Shown here one piece after another: positions 5,990 to 40,274 of a stretch of 64,000 bases of DNA. Position 1 is the stretch's first letter; each line of letters begins with the position of its first letter. Below the pieces are notes generated by a model that was not told where the DNA came from, searched no databases, and saw only the letters and a list, made by a program, of their open reading frames with translations. This DNA comes from Naegleria gruberi (lineage: Eukaryota): assembly GCA_000004985.1 (NCBI GenBank), contig GG738901.1. The stretch is one strand, 5' to 3'. The position numbers and the translations under genes are program-made.

Positions 5990-6979
5990 TTAATGACCAA
6001 TAGTTCTTCCTCCAGTAAGTTTACTCCAATAACTTCCATTATCTGATTGATAATTCTCATTCCAAATTGATTGTTGAGCAATTCCTCCACTTGCATTGTA
6101 TTGAGTTTCTCCATGATAGAAAGAATCCAACTTTTTGATAGATGAAGGTACCAAATTTTCAATCTTGGAAATAATAGCATTGAAATAATGAGAAATAAAT
6201 AAAGTTCTCTCAAATAACAATACAAAAATGTAACCAGAAATTATACCAAATAAATGTCCAACAAATGAGCTACTTGGAAAGAGAAAACTAGTTACCAATA
6301 AGAGAATCCAAGGATAATACTTAGATGGTACTGATATCATTCCAAATAATGAATTTGTAGTTTGTGAAGTGTCTGTAGATGCTATTGTCAAATAGCTGAA
6401 AATAACCCCTGAAAATCCAATAGAGCATTCATGAAGTCCAAAAAATTGAGCTAGGCCATCCATTATTCCAGAAATTGAGGCACTACCTTTTCCTTTATGC
6501 TCAAATTTAGAAAGTCTAACGTTATAACCGAATCCATAGTGTGAAATATTTGAAATTAGGAATGCAATAATTGCCTCCAAAATTGATTCCAAAAATACAA
6601 CAATAATTGTGCATACTATTAATTTTGTAGAGCTATTAAATCTTCCAGTTTCCAAAACAGCAGCAAATGAAACATGTGTCATCATATTAAATAAATAATG
6701 CATAATATCCGAATGAAAGAAAGCATATGCAAATAATCTATACAAATTCAATGGTGATGATTCATCTGTGAGAGAGTAATAATTCAAACACACTTGATCT
6801 ATTGTAGGCTGATTAAACACACATTGTACTATCAAGAATATGAAACTAATTATAATCATGATAGATAATGTTCCGAAAGGTATCTGAGAGAACCAACTCT
6901 TAGCTCGTGACCAAACATTTTGTTCCAACGATGCTGCTGACGATGACGATGCTGCTGAATATCCATCATTACCAAACAT
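5990..6979 (-). CDS. rhomboid-family intramembrane serine protease-like protein, 329 aa
   Basis: ATG at 6979 and multiple TM helices. TM2 carries an HxxxN-like FFHSDIMHYLFNMM, TM4 carries the GxSG motif GFSGVIF (catalytic Ser), and TM6 carries GHLFGIISG (catalytic His). Confidence 0.75.
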   Translation of the reverse strand: MFGNDGYSAASSSSAASLEQNVWSRAKSWFSQIPFGTLSIMIIISFIFLIVQCVFNQPTIDQVCLNYYSLTDESSPLNLYRLFAYAFFHSDIMHYLFNMMTHVSFAAVLETGRFNSSTKLIVCTIIVVFLESILEAIIAFLISNISHYGFGYNVRLSKFEHKGKGSASISGIMDGLAQFFGLHECSIGFSGVIFSYLTIASTDTSQTTNSLFGMISVPSKYYPWILLLVTSFLFPSSSFVGHLFGIISGYIFVLLFERTLFISHYFNAIISKIENLVPSSIKKLDSFYHGETQYNASGGIAQQSIWNENYQSDNGSYWSKLTGGRTIGH

Positions 6980-29757: not shown

Positions 29758-31983
<2,226 letters not shown>

Positions 31984-32394
31984 TATGCTAGATTCTCACA
32001 ACAATAATTGCAATTAGTAATTCGAAAGTGGAAGAATGTCGAACCTAATCACCACTCTTTTTTTTAAAAATGATTTTTGACGGAATAAAAGAAAAGTCAA
32101 GATGTGCGATTGTTTTCGTTCTAAATGACGTTGACTTGACCGTTGGTGGATTGATATTTCCTGAATAATAAGTTTAGAATATTTTGTTCGAAACGTGGGA
32201 GAGAAGGTTTTTGAATAAGGTATGTTTATTATTTTTGAGGTTTTGATAAGGGTACTAGGACAAAGGCTATGTAAAAAGAAGGTGAATAGCGTTCGGGGCA
32301 ACATTATGCGAATGATTCGGTTTAGAATAAATGTTATTGTAAACACATTGTGAGCTTTGCAACTTTACAATGCACTCACTCCATCAATAAAAAA

Positions 32395-32640
32395 AGTGAC
32401 AGAAGTTTACAGGTTGACCTTTTTTCACAGCAATCCAATCTACCTAACTTCTGCCACCCAGTAATATCTATTATATTTCTAATTGTTTGTTTGCCGAATA
32501 GATTGCTGAACAAGTTTCACTGGATGTCATTTCCTATATATTTAAAAAGAATTGTGAGGGAAATATTTTGGTTTTTCTAATTTTTTGATCAGTTTCTTTC
32601 CAAATTGAACTTTCTTAATAACAAGTTTGTCATTCAATAC
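32395..32640 (+). repeat. dispersed ~250-300 bp repeat, copy A (divergent, with an internal replacement)
   Basis: Shares AAAAAAGTGACAGAAG..TTTTCACAGCAATCCAATCT..TTCTGCCACC..AATTGTTTGTTTGC(T/C)GAATAGATTGCTG..ATATTTTGGTTT..TTTCTTTCCAAATTGAACTTTC with copies at about 40365 and 45365, in the same orientation. It lies about 120 bp upstream of the first 5S gene. Confidence 0.6.
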
Positions 32641-32759
32641 AATAATAAGGATTGACATCTAACTAAAATTCATAAAGTAATGTTCATGAGGGCATTACAA
32701 TTTTTATTAAGGAATGTAGGGAGTCAATTATTTATAATGTGAATTTTAAGTAATGGAAT

Positions 32760-32879
32760 GGCTACGGCCATATCACGATGAATGCACCTCATCCAGTCCG
32801 ATTTGAGAAGTTAAGCATCGTCGAGCCACATCAGTACTGAGGTTGGAGACAACTTGGGAACCTGTGGTGCTGTAGTCTT
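32760..32879 (+). rRNA. 5S ribosomal RNA gene (copy 1)
   Basis: GGCTACGGCCATATCACGATGAATGCACCTCATCCAGTCCGATTTGAGAAGTTAAGCATCGTCGAGCCACATCAGTACTGAGGTTGGAGACAACTTGGGAACCTGTGGTGCTGTAGTC matches the universal 5S layout (GGCCATA..., CCGATCTG/AAGTTAAGC, GTACT..GGGAGA.., GGTGCTGTAG). It is followed by a T-run (CTTTT), a Pol III terminator. Confidence 0.9.
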
Positions 32880-33411
32880 TTGCATTTTACCATCCATCTT
32901 CTATTTTTTAACAGAACGAGAAATCATACCAGATGAATCCTCACAGTAAAAAATGGAGAAGGATGGCAATACTGGATTCTTACTAAAACAGAAACTCGTT
33001 AATAATTCAATAATGTTGAAATGAAGTTTCAATTTCGAATTATAAGAATATATGAAACCAAAATTTGCACCAAGCAATACAGCTTGCCAAATGTTCAATA
33101 AATACAATTGGTCCAACCTTTTCAATTCTTCAACAAAACCTTACTGAACCAACAAGATTCTGTCTTCGTTGCCTTCACTGTTCATACAGTCAAAGACTGT
33201 AGCGGGATTGTTGCCATATTCCTGGCAGGCTTCCCGTCCAAAATAATAATTGAAATGTTATATGGCCTTAATATTTATTTATCCAAGTGTGCAATTATAA
33301 ACTTAATCAAGGAACATATGAGGATACTAAGGAAGAATGTAACAGAAATAGTGACATGAAACTCATTTATTTCATAATGTTTCAAAAGAATTGTTTTCCC
33401 GAATTATTCCA

Positions 33412-34528
33412 TTAATTTAATTTAAACATTCCTTGAATTTCCTTGGCAGAGTAGGCTCCTTCTAAAATCTTCTTCTCCTCTTCAGTCAATTGAATTTCCA
33501 ATGCTTGAACATTGAGCTCAACATTAACAGCCTTTGTTGCACCAATTACTGGACTTACAACTCCAGGCTTGGAAAGCAACCAAGCAAGTGCAATTTGAGC
33601 TGGAGAAACGTTTCTCTTCTTGGCAATTTCTGAAACTTTTCTCAAAGTTTCCTTATCACCTTCAGTCAAATTGCCCTTAAATATGGTTTGAACAATATCA
33701 CTATTTTGTCTCTTGGAACCATTTTCAGCAGTTTCGGTTGCATTCTCCTCAGCATTGACAAAATCATGAGCGCGAGCTAACATTCCATTAGAAAGTGGTC
33801 CCCAAGGAGTGAGTGAAACTCCTTGATCAACACACAATGGATTCATTTCTCTCTCCTCTTCTCTATAGATGAGATTGTAGAGATTTTGCATGGAAATGAA
33901 TTTAGTCAATCCCTTCTTCTCAGCATAATGTTGAGCTTTGGCAAATTGCCAAGCAAACATAGTAGAGGCACCAATGTATCTGACCTTGCCAGATTTAACC
34001 AAATCATGGAGAGCTTCCATGGTTTCTTCAATTGGTGTTTGTTCATCCCAACGATGGACAATGTACAAATCAATGTCTGTTTCAATTATTCATTTCAAAT
34101 CACAAGAAGAAATTCAGAAAAAACTTACAATCAAGACCCAATCTTTGCAATGAATCATCAACTGCATGCATAATGTGCTTTCTGGAAAGACCCATGGTAT
34201 TTGGTTTGCCTTGATTACCAACCATAATGAGCTTTTGTTCACCAGAATGATCCAATGGTCCACAAACTTTGGTTGCAACCACAATTTCCTCTCTTGGAAT
34301 GTTGAATTCCTTAATGAACTTGCCCAAAATTCTCTCACTTTCACCATTAGAATACATATCAGCAGTATCAAAGAAATTAATGCCCAAATCCCATGCCTTC
34401 TTCAAAATTCTTAATGATTCCTCTTCTTCCAAAACCCAAGGAATCCACTTGGAAGATCCAAAGCTCATGCAACCCAAACAAAGTTGAGAAACCTTCAAAC
34501 CACTTTCACCCAAATTGACGTATTTCAT
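33412..34528 (-). CDS. aldo-keto reductase family protein; complement(join(33412..34076,34129..34528)), 354 aa
   Basis: MKYVNLGESGLKVSQLCLGCMSFG...FFDTADMYSNGESE, then QRLGLD|YIDLYIVHRWDEQTPIEETMEALHDLVKSGKVRYIGAS spanning a 52-nt GTAAGT..CAG intron. The nucleotide-binding block IGATKAVNVELNVQAL follows. Confidence 0.85.
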
Positions 34529-34892
34529 ATTGTATTGACTTGCTATTGAGAACTGTTAGTTGTGCAGATAGAATTAAATTCAAAAACTAGTTGTGAATTT
34601 GTTTTTTTGTGTTTGGAATGAGAGTTTGGTTTCAAAGCCAAAATTTAAACAGAAAATTTATACTTTTAATTCTGCGCGCATGATTCTGGTTGATTTGTGC
34701 TTATATTTGAACGAGCAGAATTATGATCATTATTGAAAGAAGTGGAACTACAAACACGATTCAAAAGATCCTAATAATCACGAATCTTGAGCTTGGAAAG
34801 ATCATCCATCCAAATGATATTTACACCATGTTGACTTTTTGATGCTGATACCATTACATTTGAAAGTAGTTCACTTTCCAGTTCAAAAAAAA

Positions 34893-36194
34893 ATGAAACC
34901 ACTACTCTTGTTAATTTTATTTTTTACAATATTTTCCACAACAGGCGCAGCAAACTTTGTGATAACTTCCCCACCTTCCTCTCGTCAAGTGTTGAAATGG
35001 CCATTTGCTGCCTGGTCAATTTGGAATTTACCTATAGGAAATAATGCAAGTTATGAATTTGGAAATATTTACTTGCCCAACACTGCAACCATAGAGGCAG
35101 ATCCTGATATTATTGTATTAAATTCATCAAATCCGTTAACACCAATCTATTATTCATCAGCAGCTTGGACTGGGGCTTCACGTTGTCAGGCATCAAGTTC
35201 AACAATTATCACAAAAGTTCCCTTCCCAAGTGATTTTATAGTTGCATCAGATGGAAGTAATTATTCTGGTGCTTTTTTAATGCCAGATAATGTGACAATC
35301 GTACAGACTCAACCAATTTGTCATTGTACTAATAGCACACAAACTTCAAATGTCACAACACTTACAAAAACTATCAGTGTCAGTATTTATGGAGATGGCG
35401 CTTATGGATCCCATGGAGGTTCTGGATTATCATCCATTGGTGGTACACTTAGATTGGGAGAATTAATTCCAGACTCCAATGGAACTGTTCATCCAGTACG
35501 TCATGCTTTGAAAGGTAATCTTTGGGCTGTTTACAATTACTACAGAAATGGAAGTGCTGTTTCGAGCTGTTTCAGGTGGCCAGCAACTGGTTGTGATGGA
35601 TATTTTGCTGATGGTAAATCAGATCAATATGGAGGTACTAATCCATATGTTCGTCCTGGTTCATTGCTCGCTCTTAACACCAGTATTAATATTAACAATT
35701 TGGGATTAAAAACAATTCCAGGATTGGCCATAGCTTGGACATTACAAAATTATGGAATGTATTTGGCAGATGATAGTTATTGGAATGCAGCTGCTTTAGA
35801 AACAGAGATATCTCCAGAGGGAAATTATGTAACACAATTTAAAAAAGCATGGAATATGGATTTTACTTCAAGTACTAATGCTTGGGCAGTTGACGTTCGT
35901 TCCTTATTTAGAATGTTATCAGTTGTTAATAGCTGGAATAAGAATATGTGGTTGAATGTATCATCTTCCAATGGTACATTGGGCGCTGGTGGAGGATTTC
36001 CATTACAGAGCTGGGCACCACCATTTGCAAATGATTCTAATATTGCTACACCTGTTAGTAGCAGTTTCATCCATACGAGCTCTAATTCTCCAAAGAATTC
36101 AACCCTTGCAAACAATCAAAGAAGTATTAATGCATGTAATTTAACAACAATAATATTGGCTATAGTTTTAATTATTTTGTGCATTCAATGGTAA
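34893..36194 (+). CDS. secreted or GPI-anchored-type glycoprotein, hypothetical; signal peptide plus a C-terminal hydrophobic tail
   Basis: The preferred start is the ATG at 34893 (MKPLLLLILFFTIFSTTGAANF); the ORF-track start is an upstream TTG. Many NxS/T sequons, a Gly/Ser-rich core and a C-terminal hydrophobic segment LTTIILAIVLIILCIQW are seen. No family assigned. Confidence 0.6.
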   Translation: MKPLLLLILFFTIFSTTGAANFVITSPPSSRQVLKWPFAAWSIWNLPIGNNASYEFGNIYLPNTATIEADPDIIVLNSSNPLTPIYYSSAAWTGASRCQASSSTIITKVPFPSDFIVASDGSNYSGAFLMPDNVTIVQTQPICHCTNSTQTSNVTTLTKTISVSIYGDGAYGSHGGSGLSSIGGTLRLGELIPDSNGTVHPVRHALKGNLWAVYNYYRNGSAVSSCFRWPATGCDGYFADGKSDQYGGTNPYVRPGSLLALNTSININNLGLKTIPGLAIAWTLQNYGMYLADDSYWNAAALETEISPEGNYVTQFKKAWNMDFTSSTNAWAVDVRSLFRMLSVVNSWNKNMWLNVSSSNGTLGAGGGFPLQSWAPPFANDSNIATPVSSSFIHTSSNSPKNSTLANNQRSINACNLTTIILAIVLIILCIQW

Positions 36195-36328
36195 CTAAAC
36201 AATAAATTGAATGAGCAATGGTTGTTTTGAACAATGTTTTTAGGCGACCTAACTACTAATCTTTCACAGTAGATTAAGATTGCAGAACGATTTATATGAT
36301 TTATATTACGAAACTTACTTACATGGAT

Positions 36329-36448
36329 GGCTACGGCCATATCACGATGAATGCACCTCATCCCGTCCGATTTGAGAAGTTAAGCATCGTCGAGCCACAT
36401 CAGTACTGAGGTTGGAGACAACTTGGGAACCTGTGGTGCTGTAGTCTT
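36329..36448 (+). rRNA. 5S ribosomal RNA gene (copy 2)
   Basis: Identical to copy 1 except for one substitution (CATCCCGTCC vs CATCCAGTCC). Same orientation, 3569 bp downstream, followed by a TTTTCTTTTT terminator-like run. Confidence 0.9.
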
Positions 36449-36671
36449 TTCTTTTTGATCCTTTTCATTGTTTTTTATAAATTGTGAATTAGTATGAATT
36501 AACTTCCAATTTATTCACCACCAATTAGCATTTCTGTGGCACAGATATTTCATACGATAATTACACGCCATAGGTGTTCTAAATCGTGACTATGCCTTTG
36601 TGTCCATATTTCATTTCCGATTTATCAAAACCACAAGCAAAATTCATGGAAATTCTTTTATTCTCTATTGT

Positions 36672-36900
36672 TTATGGCAAACCTGGCCAATTATCAACAT
36701 ATTGAATTTTAAAATCTGGCCAATTATCAACAATTTGAATCTTATAATCAGGCCAATTATCAACAATTTGCCATTTTCCAACACTATCAGGCCAATTATT
36801 GACCTTTTGAACCTTGAGATCTGGCCAATTATCAACAATTTGGACTTTGTAATCTGGCCAATTATCTACGAATTGAATCTTACCATAAATTTTGGCAATT
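36672..36900. repeat. 33-bp tandem repeat array (about 6-7 units)
   Basis: Units TGGCCAATTATCAACAATTTGAAT(C/T)TT(A/T)TAATC(A/T)GGCC... repeat head to tail. The period is 33 nt, equal to 11 codons. Confidence 0.7.
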
Positions 36901-36920
36901 TGATCTTTGGAAAGTGTCAT
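36672..36920 (-). CDS. putative 82-aa tandem-repeat micro-protein with six [IFY]VDNWPD[YLF]K[VI]Q repeats
   Basis: Minus-strand ATG at 36920 in an A-rich context. The translation MTLSKDQIAKIYGKIQFVDNWPDYKVQIVDNWPDLKVQ...YVDNWPGLP is hydrophilic and repeat-structured. The overlapping plus ORF has no ATG and reads as a hydrophobic mirror translation. Confidence 0.35.
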   Translation of the reverse strand: MTLSKDQIAKIYGKIQFVDNWPDYKVQIVDNWPDLKVQKVNNWPDSVGKWQIVDNWPDYKIQIVDNWPDFKIQYVDNWPGLP

Positions 36921-37214
36921 TTCTTGTTTTTTTATTCTGTTGTTTTGATCAACACGGATATCACACCATGTGATGATTTTAAAGGAAAATTAGAAGTGTT
37001 ACATAGCTGTTCGATTTCACAATAGTTCCTGGTTGATCTTCGAGGATTTTCTGACAATTGTAAAACGTATTTGCTTGTTGGAATTGAAGTTACATATTAC
37101 ATTGTAAAATTGGTTCAATCTGATTGTTCATGAATTGCTGCACTGTACAGAATCTAACACCAAAAGTTTTCATTTCAGGGCTGCAAAATAATTTCCTTGA
37201 TCATCTGTAAAAAA

Positions 37215-40200
37215 ATGAACGAATTGCTAACTACTACCAACAACCACAAGAACATTCTCACCTATTTTTATGCACCCATCAATGATTGTACAAATATTAA
37301 TTCATCATCATCAGCATCGGAACCATTTTCCAACAAACATGAAAAACATGAGGATGATGATCTTAATTTAATTGCTAATAAATCGACAAAAGTAGTACGA
37401 GATATTTTCCTATTTGAAGAATGGAGATTAATTGCAAGTTTTTTGACGAGGAAAAATTGTTTTGGAGGCTTGGCAAGTGTAAACAAAACTTCAAGATTGG
37501 CAGTTTTAAGTGTACATTTTATTAGAAATAGTGCAGTGATTAAATCATTTGCACTTCGTTGGATTTGGGCACAAACTATTGATAGTTATTCCGATAAATT
37601 ACCAAATAATAGATTTATTGAAATATTAAAACCACTTCAGGAGGAATATTATGATTTGCACCAATTTATACAAGATCCAAATCAAGAAAAGAGTGAAAAT
37701 TACTTTCCAATACCAAATTATTATTCACGTAATCTTGTAAAGGCAGCATGCAGTGTTGGAAATAACGAAATTATTTTACAATTAATTGAAAAATCATTTT
37801 TATTTGATTTGAGCACAGTAACACCATCAAAGTATTATGATTTGGCATTCTTGAATGGACATTATGATACAGCTGTTGCTTTTGCTAAAACTTTACTTTT
37901 AAGAAATGGAGAATTGGATATTTCCAAATGTATTCCTCAAATAATTTCTCCATTCATTGCACCAATTGAATTTGAAAATCAATATCAAATAGTCTATCAA
38001 TTATTTAACAGATCTCAAACACATTATCAATTGGGAATTAGTAGAATAATTTATGAATTATTACATTCACAACTTTTACAAACATGCCATGAGGAAGCTT
38101 CTAAAATTGGTTGGACTAATTTATTAGATATTGCTCTTTTTAATTTGCATTTCCCACAACTATTAATGCGAAATGATATTGAGTCAGTTCAATTTATTGT
38201 TGGACGTTTATATCAAAATAGAAAAGAAAACAATACTCTTCCATTATTTTCAAATGATTTGGAAAGAATCCTCATACAAATACAATCACTGGATCAAGTT
38301 GATTTTCTTGTATGGTTCTTTGAATATATAGGAAGTTTGGGAGAGTTGACATTATTATCGGATTTAATATTTAACAATTTGAATACTATTTTAACTATTA
38401 ATACTAAATTTTTAGATATTTATTTGAATCAATTTCATGGAAGACATGTTGAAAATGATGAAAAAAGACTCTATGAATATATGGATGGTTTGGATACCAA
38501 CTATCTTAATTTGATATCTCTTTTGGGAATTACTAAAATACCATACGAGAGGATTGCAAAACATTTAAACTCATGTGCACAGTACTATTTGGTTAATTAT
38601 GGTAATGTAATTGTTCAATATTATGAACCAGAAATTGCAACAATCATCTTTAATAACATTCAACTCTTCCTTGATGATACAAAGATTCATCCAAAGAAAC
38701 GTTCGCTCTGTTTAACACCAAGAGTACAAACAGATCTTGTTAATTTATTTCTCAAACAGGAGATTGTAGATTGGAAACTAATTGTAGAATTTATTGAAAA
38801 GAATCCATTCATGTCCAATTTTATGGAAATTATAATTTCAAATGCCTATGATTCGTTTACAAGAACAATATTGGATAGAATTTACTCAACTTCAGACTCT
38901 GAGAATTATTCATCCAGAAGAAGATTTATATTCAAATCCTTTACTAGATATATTGAGAAGGATGTTTATGACTTTTGTGCCTTGTTAATGTTTGCATGCA
39001 CAGTTGAAAAGAGTTTTATGAAAGCTTTGATAGAAAGGAATGAATTTTTAATATCAAAGATTCATGCCTCATTTGAACCATTTCAAAATGTTAGTCAAAT
39101 GATTGAAAGATGGAACGATGGTTCATTTGAATTAATTTCACATGATTTGCCTGTTTTGGACTGTCTTTGTAATAGTTCGTTGAAGGTATTTGTAAATGCT
39201 ATTGGTTCTCTATGGCCACTTTCTAATAATTTCCTCAGTTTGACATTTAAAATTCTCGATGAGTCATATGAACCTATCGTAAGAAATAACATTAATGATA
39301 TTAGAAACATTATCCGACATTTCATTACATCAAGTCATGATATTGATATTATAACATCATACTTCAAAACGACAATTCATCAGGAGGAAATTTTAAATGT
39401 TCTAATGGGATTACCACTATTTACGAAAGATAATTTGTTAAATATTTCAACATCGGTTTTAGCAAGAACAAAATTAACACTTTCAAGTTTAGATACGATT
39501 GTTAACATTATTCACGATCATTTTGATGATGTTCTAGAACAAAAATTCAAAGATTACATTACCATTCCACAAGATAATTTATCACAACTCATTTCTATCA
39601 AATACCATCCAAAATCAATATCATTACTTGAAAGAATTTCATATAGACATTTATTTGAACCTTCATATTTGTCATTCTTTGAACAAATTGAAAGTGTATG
39701 TGGAAGAGGAAGTATGGTTTCATCTGATAGTGCACAAGCCTATTGGAATGCATCCAGTGACCCTTATCTCTTGTTAAATGATAGAGATACTATTATGAAT
39801 CTACTTTCAAAATATGAAACTATTCCTAAAACAAGCAAGTGGAGATCAATTCTTACAGGTCTAGTTAATCATGGATTTATTGATGAACTATTGGAAAGAT
39901 TAGCGGAAAAAGAACATCGTAAACCAATTCTTTTTGAAAATTCTCCTCTTTTCACTTTAACAAGTTCATTTGGAAATATTTCTACTTCTTCTGAATTTCT
40001 ACAAGAAAATAGAAAGAAGGAACAACAATCAGAAAGAGAAAAACAACTCTCCTATGTTCAAGCTCCTCCTCTATTTAATTTTACTTTTGATTTTGGAAAT
40101 TCCAATAATAATAATAATAATAATGGAAACTCATTTATTTTCCTTTCTAAGAATGAATCAAACAGTGGAAATAGTAGTAGTGATGGTTTGGAATTACACT

Positions 40201-40274
40201 CATCTAAAGCACCCCCAACTAATTATTCACACACAACATTACCATTTAATCAATACCTACAGTTCAAGCAATAA
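37215..40274 (+). CDS. large F-box-like hypothetical protein, about 1019 aa
   Basis: The first ATG is at 37215 (MNELLTTT...). An N-terminal F-box-like VVRDIFLFEEWRLIASFLTRKNCFGGLASVNKTSRLAV, a long helical body and a C-terminal Asn/Ser-rich tail. Confidence 0.6.
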   Translation: MNELLTTTNNHKNILTYFYAPINDCTNINSSSSASEPFSNKHEKHEDDDLNLIANKSTKVVRDIFLFEEWRLIASFLTRKNCFGGLASVNKTSRLAVLSVHFIRNSAVIKSFALRWIWAQTIDSYSDKLPNNRFIEILKPLQEEYYDLHQFIQDPNQEKSENYFPIPNYYSRNLVKAACSVGNNEIILQLIEKSFLFDLSTVTPSKYYDLAFLNGHYDTAVAFAKTLLLRNGELDISKCIPQIISPFIAPIEFENQYQIVYQLFNRSQTHYQLGISRIIYELLHSQLLQTCHEEASKIGWTNLLDIALFNLHFPQLLMRNDIESVQFIVGRLYQNRKENNTLPLFSNDLERILIQIQSLDQVDFLVWFFEYIGSLGELTLLSDLIFNNLNTILTINTKFLDIYLNQFHGRHVENDEKRLYEYMDGLDTNYLNLISLLGITKIPYERIAKHLNSCAQYYLVNYGNVIVQYYEPEIATIIFNNIQLFLDDTKIHPKKRSLCLTPRVQTDLVNLFLKQEIVDWKLIVEFIEKNPFMSNFMEIIISNAYDSFTRTILDRIYSTSDSENYSSRRRFIFKSFTRYIEKDVYDFCALLMFACTVEKSFMKALIERNEFLISKIHASFEPFQNVSQMIERWNDGSFELISHDLPVLDCLCNSSLKVFVNAIGSLWPLSNNFLSLTFKILDESYEPIVRNNINDIRNIIRHFITSSHDIDIITSYFKTTIHQEEILNVLMGLPLFTKDNLLNISTSVLARTKLTLSSLDTIVNIIHDHFDDVLEQKFKDYITIPQDNLSQLISIKYHPKSISLLERISYRHLFEPSYLSFFEQIESVCGRGSMVSSDSAQAYWNASSDPYLLLNDRDTIMNLLSKYETIPKTSKWRSILTGLVNHGFIDELLERLAEKEHRKPILFENSPLFTLTSSFGNISTSSEFLQENRKKEQQSEREKQLSYVQAPPLFNFTFDFGNSNNNNNNNGNSFIFLSKNESNSGNSSSDGLELHSSKAPPTNYSHTTLPFNQYLQFKQ

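Follow-up and report, generated by a model that had tools for sequence, protein, structure and literature searches.

Two nearly identical 5S rRNA genes of Naegleria gruberi as probable independent units of a scattered chromosomal family

Genes for 5S ribosomal RNA (rRNA) number roughly 100 in Neurospora crassa and 30 in Schizosaccharomyces pombe. The Neurospora copies are conserved genes with unrelated flanks, and the 5S genes of both organisms have an upstream TATA element near position -30. Scattered organization of 5S genes has been described as rare (PMC1635290). Yarrowia lipolytica has 108 dispersed full-length 5S genes that are not embedded in the ribosomal DNA (rDNA), and nearly half of its 5S copies are located directly 3' of a transfer RNA (tRNA) gene and are transcribed through it (PMC2566860). 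The stretch of Naegleria gruberi DNA analyzed here, 64 kb in length and referred to below as the window, contains two 5S genes, copy A and copy B. The two copies are very probably independent, intact RNA polymerase III (Pol III) units for cytoplasmic 5S rRNA, members of a chromosomal 5S family that is scattered in N. gruberi and comprises ~264 full-length copies.

The whole window was scanned with cmscan against Rfam 15. Above the gathering score of 38 bits for 5S_rRNA (RF00001), the 64 kb yield exactly two matches, both of which are 5S_rRNA. A scan at E <= 1 found nothing in the 64 kb beyond these two genes, and no 18S, 5.8S or 28S rRNA gene was among the results. A preliminary description of this DNA had proposed two near-identical 5S genes that differ by one base, have the same orientation and end in T-runs, and that are dispersed among protein-coding genes instead of being part of an rDNA array. 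The cmscan matches, whose scores lie well above the threshold (Table 1), and the sequence bear out the first part of this proposal. The second holds as well, as the copies occur singly between protein-coding genes and no other rRNA gene is present in the window. No tRNA gene was found in the window by either ARAGORN or Rfam, and a tRNA-5S fusion was rejected for this reason.

Both copies are 119 nt long and are separated by 3569 bp from start to start, leaving a spacer of 3.45 kb. The single difference between them is at gene position 36, in loop C, where copy A has an A (at 32795) and copy B has a C (at 36364). The canonical three-way junction is the minimum free energy fold of both copies, at -41.5 kcal/mol, and is left unchanged by the loop C variant. 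The fold was further examined in an alignment of 11 5S sequences, consisting of the two window copies and nine sequences from metagenome contigs, onto which the Rfam consensus structure was projected. In this alignment 98.4% of the cells are paired and 16 of the 34 base pairs show double-sided changes, whereas sliding the pairing partners by 1-3 columns as a control gives only 29-43% paired. In the part of loop C where the consensus reads CCCAUCCCG, copy B has CCCGUCCG, as do all nine other aligned sequences, and copy A has CCAGUCCG. Judged from their sequence, both copies are genuine, intact, full-length 5S rRNA genes, which look functional.

The two genes have a place in a published catalogue, Table S1 of PMC3369914, in which 279 putative 5S genes of N. 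gruberi are given with their scaffold coordinates. Exactly two of the entries are on scaffold_57, R33728 at 64763-64879 (similarity 0.7417) and R33443 at 68332-68448 (similarity 0.75). Like the window copies, they start 3569 bp apart and differ by one mismatch, the first entry having one more than the second, so that R33728 is copy A and R33443 is copy B. For both copies, the published coordinates differ from those of the Rfam match by an offset of 32000, plus 3 at the start and plus 1 at the end; in PMC3369914 the gene is counted from a T, the base at position four of the Rfam match. The window thus corresponds to about 32001-96000 of scaffold_57, and both copies had already been catalogued. 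The two copies, the copy number and the separation of the 5S genes from the rDNA were all published in 2012 (PMC3369914), and the arrangement itself is not new. PMC3369914 was the only paper found in the open-access literature that deals with the 5S genes of N. gruberi.

The genome-wide layout of the family was drawn from the published coordinates of Table S1 and not from sequence. Rows of at least 110 nt, 264 of the 279, are spread over 113 scaffolds, and the smallest start-to-start distance between full-length copies is 1104 bp. Linking copies at distances of <=6 kb results in 229 clusters, namely 198 singletons, 27 pairs, one of which is the pair in the window, and 4 triplets. Between adjacent copies, gaps of <=6 kb occur 35 times, compared to ~10 expected for random placement in 41 Mb, and the maximum reached in 1000 simulations was 22. 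Neighbours 1-6 kb apart are thus in roughly 3.5-fold excess. Table 1 of PMC3369914 nevertheless carries the entry 'Tandem arrangement: Y*' for N. gruberi. Because Table S1 shows a spacing of at least 1104 bp and mostly single copies, the family is read here as scattered, although adjacent intergenic regions genuinely carry more copies than expected. The window pair has the features of such an organization: unique DNA and other genes lie between the copies, no 18S, 5.8S or 28S gene is linked to them and their flanks are unrelated. A copy is listed at 6695-6811 on scaffold_382 and again on scaffold_248, which suggests that some scaffolds are redundant. Redundant mini-scaffolds make the number 279 an upper bound.

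When the two copies are aligned together with 100 nt of flanking sequence on either side, the identity stops at the edges of the gene, extending from about -7 to just past the T-run. Outside the genes, the copies have in common only the string ATGGA(A)T, an ATTTATA at -30 and the T-run, and the flanks are otherwise unrelated. The ATTTATA is found at exactly -30..-24 in both copies, within a longer AT.ATTTATA.T at -33..-22. A run of 7 identities at the same offset in the region -60..-7 occurs in 0.6% of random window pairs (P about 0.006). The preliminary description had drawn attention to a different string, TGGA(A)TGG, just upstream of both copies. This string does occur, at 32754-32761 and 36324-36330, but the gene itself begins with the two final G of the string, and only the remainder is upstream sequence. 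The TATA-like ATTTATA at -30 is the better candidate for a promoter element of the two.

At least four T, as expected for a type-1 gene, follow immediately after both copies. At +50 the gene fits the box A pattern given in PMC3369914, although the box A and box C patterns are degenerate and overlap regions in which the RNA is structurally constrained. The 5S genes of N. gruberi were reported in the same paper not to be with the rDNA unit, and to have an internal control region and a TATA box (PMC3369914). A scan for sigma-70 promoters and intrinsic terminators, which is unsuited to a eukaryote, gave counts equal to those of shuffled sequences.

Each copy can be described as a compact transcription unit. 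A TATA-like element at -30 and a short conserved stretch just before the start would precede the 119-nt gene, which would contain an internal box-A-like element at +50 and a box-C-like element at +80. A terminator of four T, followed by a second T-run as a back-up, would complete the unit. The non-genic sequence shared by the copies would then correspond to the requirements of the promoter and the terminator. The Naegleria plasmid encodes single copies of the 18S, 5.8S and 28S genes (PMC12482156). Because this rDNA plasmid carries no 5S gene, 5S rRNA must be supplied by chromosomal genes.

Related loci were found in metagenomes. The closest is L002, a 2226-bp ENA metagenome contig that is ~97% identical to window positions 34209-36217. 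It contains the same open reading frame (ORF) that precedes copy B in the window, and after it, at the same site, a 5S gene begins, of which the contig includes 44 nt, all matching copy B, before it ends. The order of the aldo-keto reductase (AKR) gene, the ORF and the 5S gene in L002 is that of the window. The spacer has accumulated indels, yet ATTTATATT at -30 and ATGGAT at -6 are kept. Another contig, L011 from the Joint Genome Institute (JGI) metagenomes, has one 5S gene that differs from copy B by one base (T24A) and has unrelated flanks. Its TATA-like sequence starts at -23, and its counterpart of ATGGAT is GTAGAT.

A metagenome scan with a 29-mer from the 5' half of the 5S gene gave no match. 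A scan with a 20-mer gave 15 contigs, 14 of which contain a 5S gene, one each; only L011 is Naegleria-like. A TATA-like sequence starts at -34 to -20 in 6 of the 14 loci, compared to a null rate of 6.4% per locus (P about 1e-4), and in the Naegleria-type loci such a start is found in all, at -28/-23. Ten VFQM/VFQO contigs (within L007-L019) contain a more distant 5S family, with 26-29 differences from N. gruberi. These contigs are 2-7 kb long and AT-rich (G+C 33-38%), and each has one 5S gene. Their variants include compensatory changes in helix II (GCG/CGC, GTG/CAC and GCA/TGC), and they look like another scattered 5S family. No 5S gene was found in 85 kb of AKR-paralogue loci from N. lovaniensis (L001, L004), N. 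fowleri (L003) and Willaertia magna (L005). None of these four loci is syntenic with the window, as judged by tblastn for L001 and by the listed neighbour genes for L003-L005.

The near-identity of the two copies has to be seen against the apparent homogeneity of the whole family. The similarity class of copy B (0.75) is the commonest in Table S1, with 161 of the 279 entries, and copy B is probably the majority variant; the class of copy A has 40. Neighbours within 6 kb fall into the same similarity class 13 times, compared to 14.2 expected for random pairs. Minor variants make up 31 of 66 clustered copies versus 72 of 198, which is not a significant enrichment (P = 0.15). Because the flanks are unrelated and the class counts show no likeness between neighbours, the near-identity of the pair appears to reflect the uniformity of the family and not a recent local duplication or a conversion specific to neighbouring copies. 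Purifying selection on the RNA is the most likely cause of this uniformity, possibly together with gene conversion of short tracts between dispersed copies.

Several points weigh against the interpretation of the copies as intact Pol III units of a scattered and uniform family. Copy A has an A at position 36 (C36A), where the Rfam consensus and each of the ten other sequences in the alignment carry a C. Its score is 5 bits lower than that of copy B, and it may be a weaker or silent variant. The box C pattern of PMC3369914 matches imperfectly at +80, with 2 mismatches. BLAST and PSI-BLAST searches found no TFIIIA in N. gruberi (PMC3369914), and given this result the classic type-1 mechanism may not be applicable as such. 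Transcription by Pol III from the elements described above is what we infer by analogy. Tandem arrays may have been collapsed in the draft assembly. The similarity column of Table S1, from which the class counts were taken, is a crude proxy for sequence identity.

The first alternative is that one or both copies are non-functional, being retro-copies, elements derived from 5S RNA that resemble short interspersed elements, or decaying pseudogenes. An RNA-mediated copy would show identity confined almost exactly to the transcribed region, as is seen here, and the C36A change in copy A is at a nearly invariant position of loop C. Nevertheless, this alternative is unlikely. The full model, 1-120, is matched by both copies, and none of the marks by which such copies are recognized, namely poly-A, truncation and a target-site duplication, was seen. 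No run of five or more A occurs within 30 nt downstream of either copy. No target-site duplication was detected, as direct repeats shared by the 40-nt flanks do not exceed 6 nt (P = 0.42). Furthermore, both copies have a TATA-like element at an equal upstream distance, which a retro-copy would not carry. Copy B belongs to the modal similarity class and has been retained at the same site in a relative that is ~3% diverged.

A recent local duplication, segmental or tandem, or gene conversion restricted to these two neighbours was the explanation put forward in the preliminary description, and it is very unlikely. It is true that the copies have one difference in 119 positions, are 3569 bp apart and point in the same direction. 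The excess of gaps of <=6 kb (35 compared to ~10) also implies that some local process makes or keeps neighbouring copies. However, the copies cease to resemble each other at about -7 on one side and immediately past the T-run on the other, leaving only short promoter-like and terminator-like strings in common outside the gene. A 185-nt block with 85% ungapped identity owes this value to the gene itself, and the two genes in the spacer are not related to one another. These observations largely refute any duplication that extends beyond the gene. Conversion specific to the pair is not indicated either, given the sharing of similarity classes among neighbours and the absence of a significant enrichment of minor variants described above.

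The window is assigned to N. gruberi NEG-M (Heterolobosea, Discoba) because both the 1020-aa ORF at 37212-40271, which is 100% identical to NAEGRDRAFT_81341, and the first exon of the AKR gene are identical to N. gruberi proteins. The comparison with Amoebozoa and Fungi in which the preliminary description had framed the locus does not suit a member of the Heterolobosea. The G+C content across the window is 29-36%, and the introns are short and of the GT..AG type. The features discussed here are collected in Table 1.

Table 1. Positions in the 64-kb window of the two 5S genes, their flanking elements and the surrounding protein-coding genes; offsets are relative to the gene start, and the terminator type of the T-runs is assigned by sequence.
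Feature	Position	Strand	Description
5S copy A	32760-32878	+	RF00001, 100.2 bits, E 1e-20, model 1-120 untruncated; A at gene position 36
5S copy B	36329-36447	+	RF00001, 105.4 bits, E 4.4e-22, model 1-120 untruncated; C at gene position 36
TATA-like ATTTATAAT	32730-32738	+	-30..-22 of copy A; candidate upstream Pol III promoter element
TATA-like ATTTATATT	36299-36307	+	-30..-22 of copy B; candidate upstream Pol III promoter element
ATGGAAT	32753-32759	+	Abuts copy A upstream; start-site-proximal similarity, putative function
ATGGAT	36323-36328	+	Abuts copy B upstream; start-site-proximal similarity
T-runs TTTT GCA TTTT	32878-32881, 32885-32888	+	After copy A; Pol III terminator-type
T-runs TTTT C TTTTT	36447-36450, 36452-36456	+	After copy B; Pol III terminator-type
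AKR gene, two exons	34528-33412	-	Between the 5S copies; 52-nt GT..AG intron at 34077-34128
ORF of secreted type, 433 aa	34893-36194	+	Between the 5S copies; intronless
NAEGRDRAFT_81341 ORF, 1020 aa	37212-40274	+	Downstream of copy B
Protein-kinase gene		-	Neighbours the copy A region; Pfam Pkinase in exon 31365-31655, likely start near 31979

An AKR gene and a gene for a secreted glycoprotein had been proposed to lie between the two 5S copies, and both genes were recovered. The AKR product matches Pfam family PF00248 (E 2.4e-79). The spliced sequence is 93-95% identical to two N. gruberi cluster representatives, and proteins from N. lovaniensis, Willaertia and N. fowleri rank behind them. Over exon 1 the identity to N. 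gruberi P0002 is 100%. The deposited P0002 model has 338 residues and is missing 16 that the second exon in the window encodes in frame, whereas the two-exon model derived here has 354 residues, the same length as the paralogue P0001. The shorter deposited model is probably explained by an over-predicted intron. The product of the 433-aa ORF is hydrophobic at both ends, with a signal-like N-terminus and a C-terminal tail, and contains 14 N-X-S/T sequons, in keeping with the secreted type proposed. A Pfam scan of this ORF gave no family. Its homologues are mostly unnamed bacterial or metagenome proteins, and no named Naegleria homologue is among the best 120 hits. The deposited N. gruberi protein set seems to lack the gene for this protein.

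Copy A lies in an intergenic region of ~1.4 kb (31979-33412), bounded by the protein-kinase gene and the 3' end of the AKR gene. This is long for a compact genome, and nothing else was recognized there. Just downstream of copy B, a 33-nt tandem repeat is present in six copies at 36652-36908. It encodes 11-residue units, VDNWPDxKxQI, in an 82-aa ORF on the minus strand (36672-36920), for which Pfam gave no match. Further downstream, NAEGRDRAFT_81341 appears to be an orphan gene, as no Pfam domain was recognized in it and a comparison with 5.8 billion proteins detected no homologue but itself.

The nature of the intervening genes bears on another explanation, in which the 5S genes are direct repeats that bracket an inserted cassette, made up of the AKR gene and the bacterial-type secreted gene and brought in by a circular DNA whose own 5S gene underwent homologous recombination with one on the chromosome, which would leave a 5S copy at either end. 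The direct repeats are limited to the gene, with 3.45 kb between them, there is a genome-wide surplus of 1-6 kb pairs, and the secreted-type ORF is intronless, with the mostly bacterial and metagenome homologues just described. However, the AKR gene has a spliceosomal intron and several Naegleria paralogues, and the order of AKR gene, ORF and 5S gene is already present in the related strain represented by L002. The same picture would arise from any pair of scattered copies located in adjacent intergenic regions, and the insertion, for which direct support is nil, is highly improbable. A more general proposal would be that 5S genes spread to, or recombine with, nearby intergenic sites and that they sometimes bracket inserted cassettes, in the present case an AKR paralogue and a secreted gene. 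Such spread would explain the ~3.5-fold excess of neighbours 1-6 kb apart, but it is offered here as a speculation with a slim chance of being correct. A related and more sober speculation would be that transcription of the 5S genes in N. gruberi is independent of TFIIIA and is driven by the upstream TATA-like element. Lastly, membership of the two copies in a tandem 5S array, to which the 'Y*' entry (PMC3369914) and the many 1-2 kb 5S mini-scaffolds in Table S1, possibly collapsed repeats, might point, can be given practically no weight, as the spacer is 3.45 kb of unique DNA with two different protein-coding genes, no two full-length copies in Table S1 are closer than the minimum given above and 198 of the 229 clusters are singletons.

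As independent members of a scattered family, the two copies of N. gruberi can be compared with better studied systems. Scattered 5S genes are a known though uncommon arrangement, and N. gruberi, like Neurospora crassa, Schizosaccharomyces pombe and Acanthamoeba castellanii, has single scattered 5S genes. It differs from Neurospora and S. pombe in its higher copy number (~264) and in the measurable excess of neighbour pairs. A further difference concerns the large rRNA genes, which in N. gruberi are on an extrachromosomal plasmid instead of in a chromosomal array. Acanthamoeba is reported to use TFIIIA, the factor that was reported not to be found in N. gruberi. The 5S genes of Yarrowia and N. 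gruberi are both dispersed, but the loci in the window show no tRNA fusion. In Saccharomyces cerevisiae and on the extrachromosomal palindrome of Dictyostelium discoideum the 5S genes are linked to the rDNA, whereas in N. gruberi they are chromosomal and have no such linkage. The three organisms have the same RNA with the same fold.

The published coordinates, when re-examined, correct two loose statements in the literature, namely that the 5S genes are 'tandem' (PMC3369914) and that the rRNA genes are 'exclusively' on the plasmid (PMC12482156). The plasmid 18S, 5.8S and 28S genes are present in thousands of copies compared to a few hundred chromosomal 5S genes, so that N. gruberi has two gene-dosage systems to balance. 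The window, otherwise ordinary, is a clean example of this layout of plasmid rDNA and scattered 5S genes.

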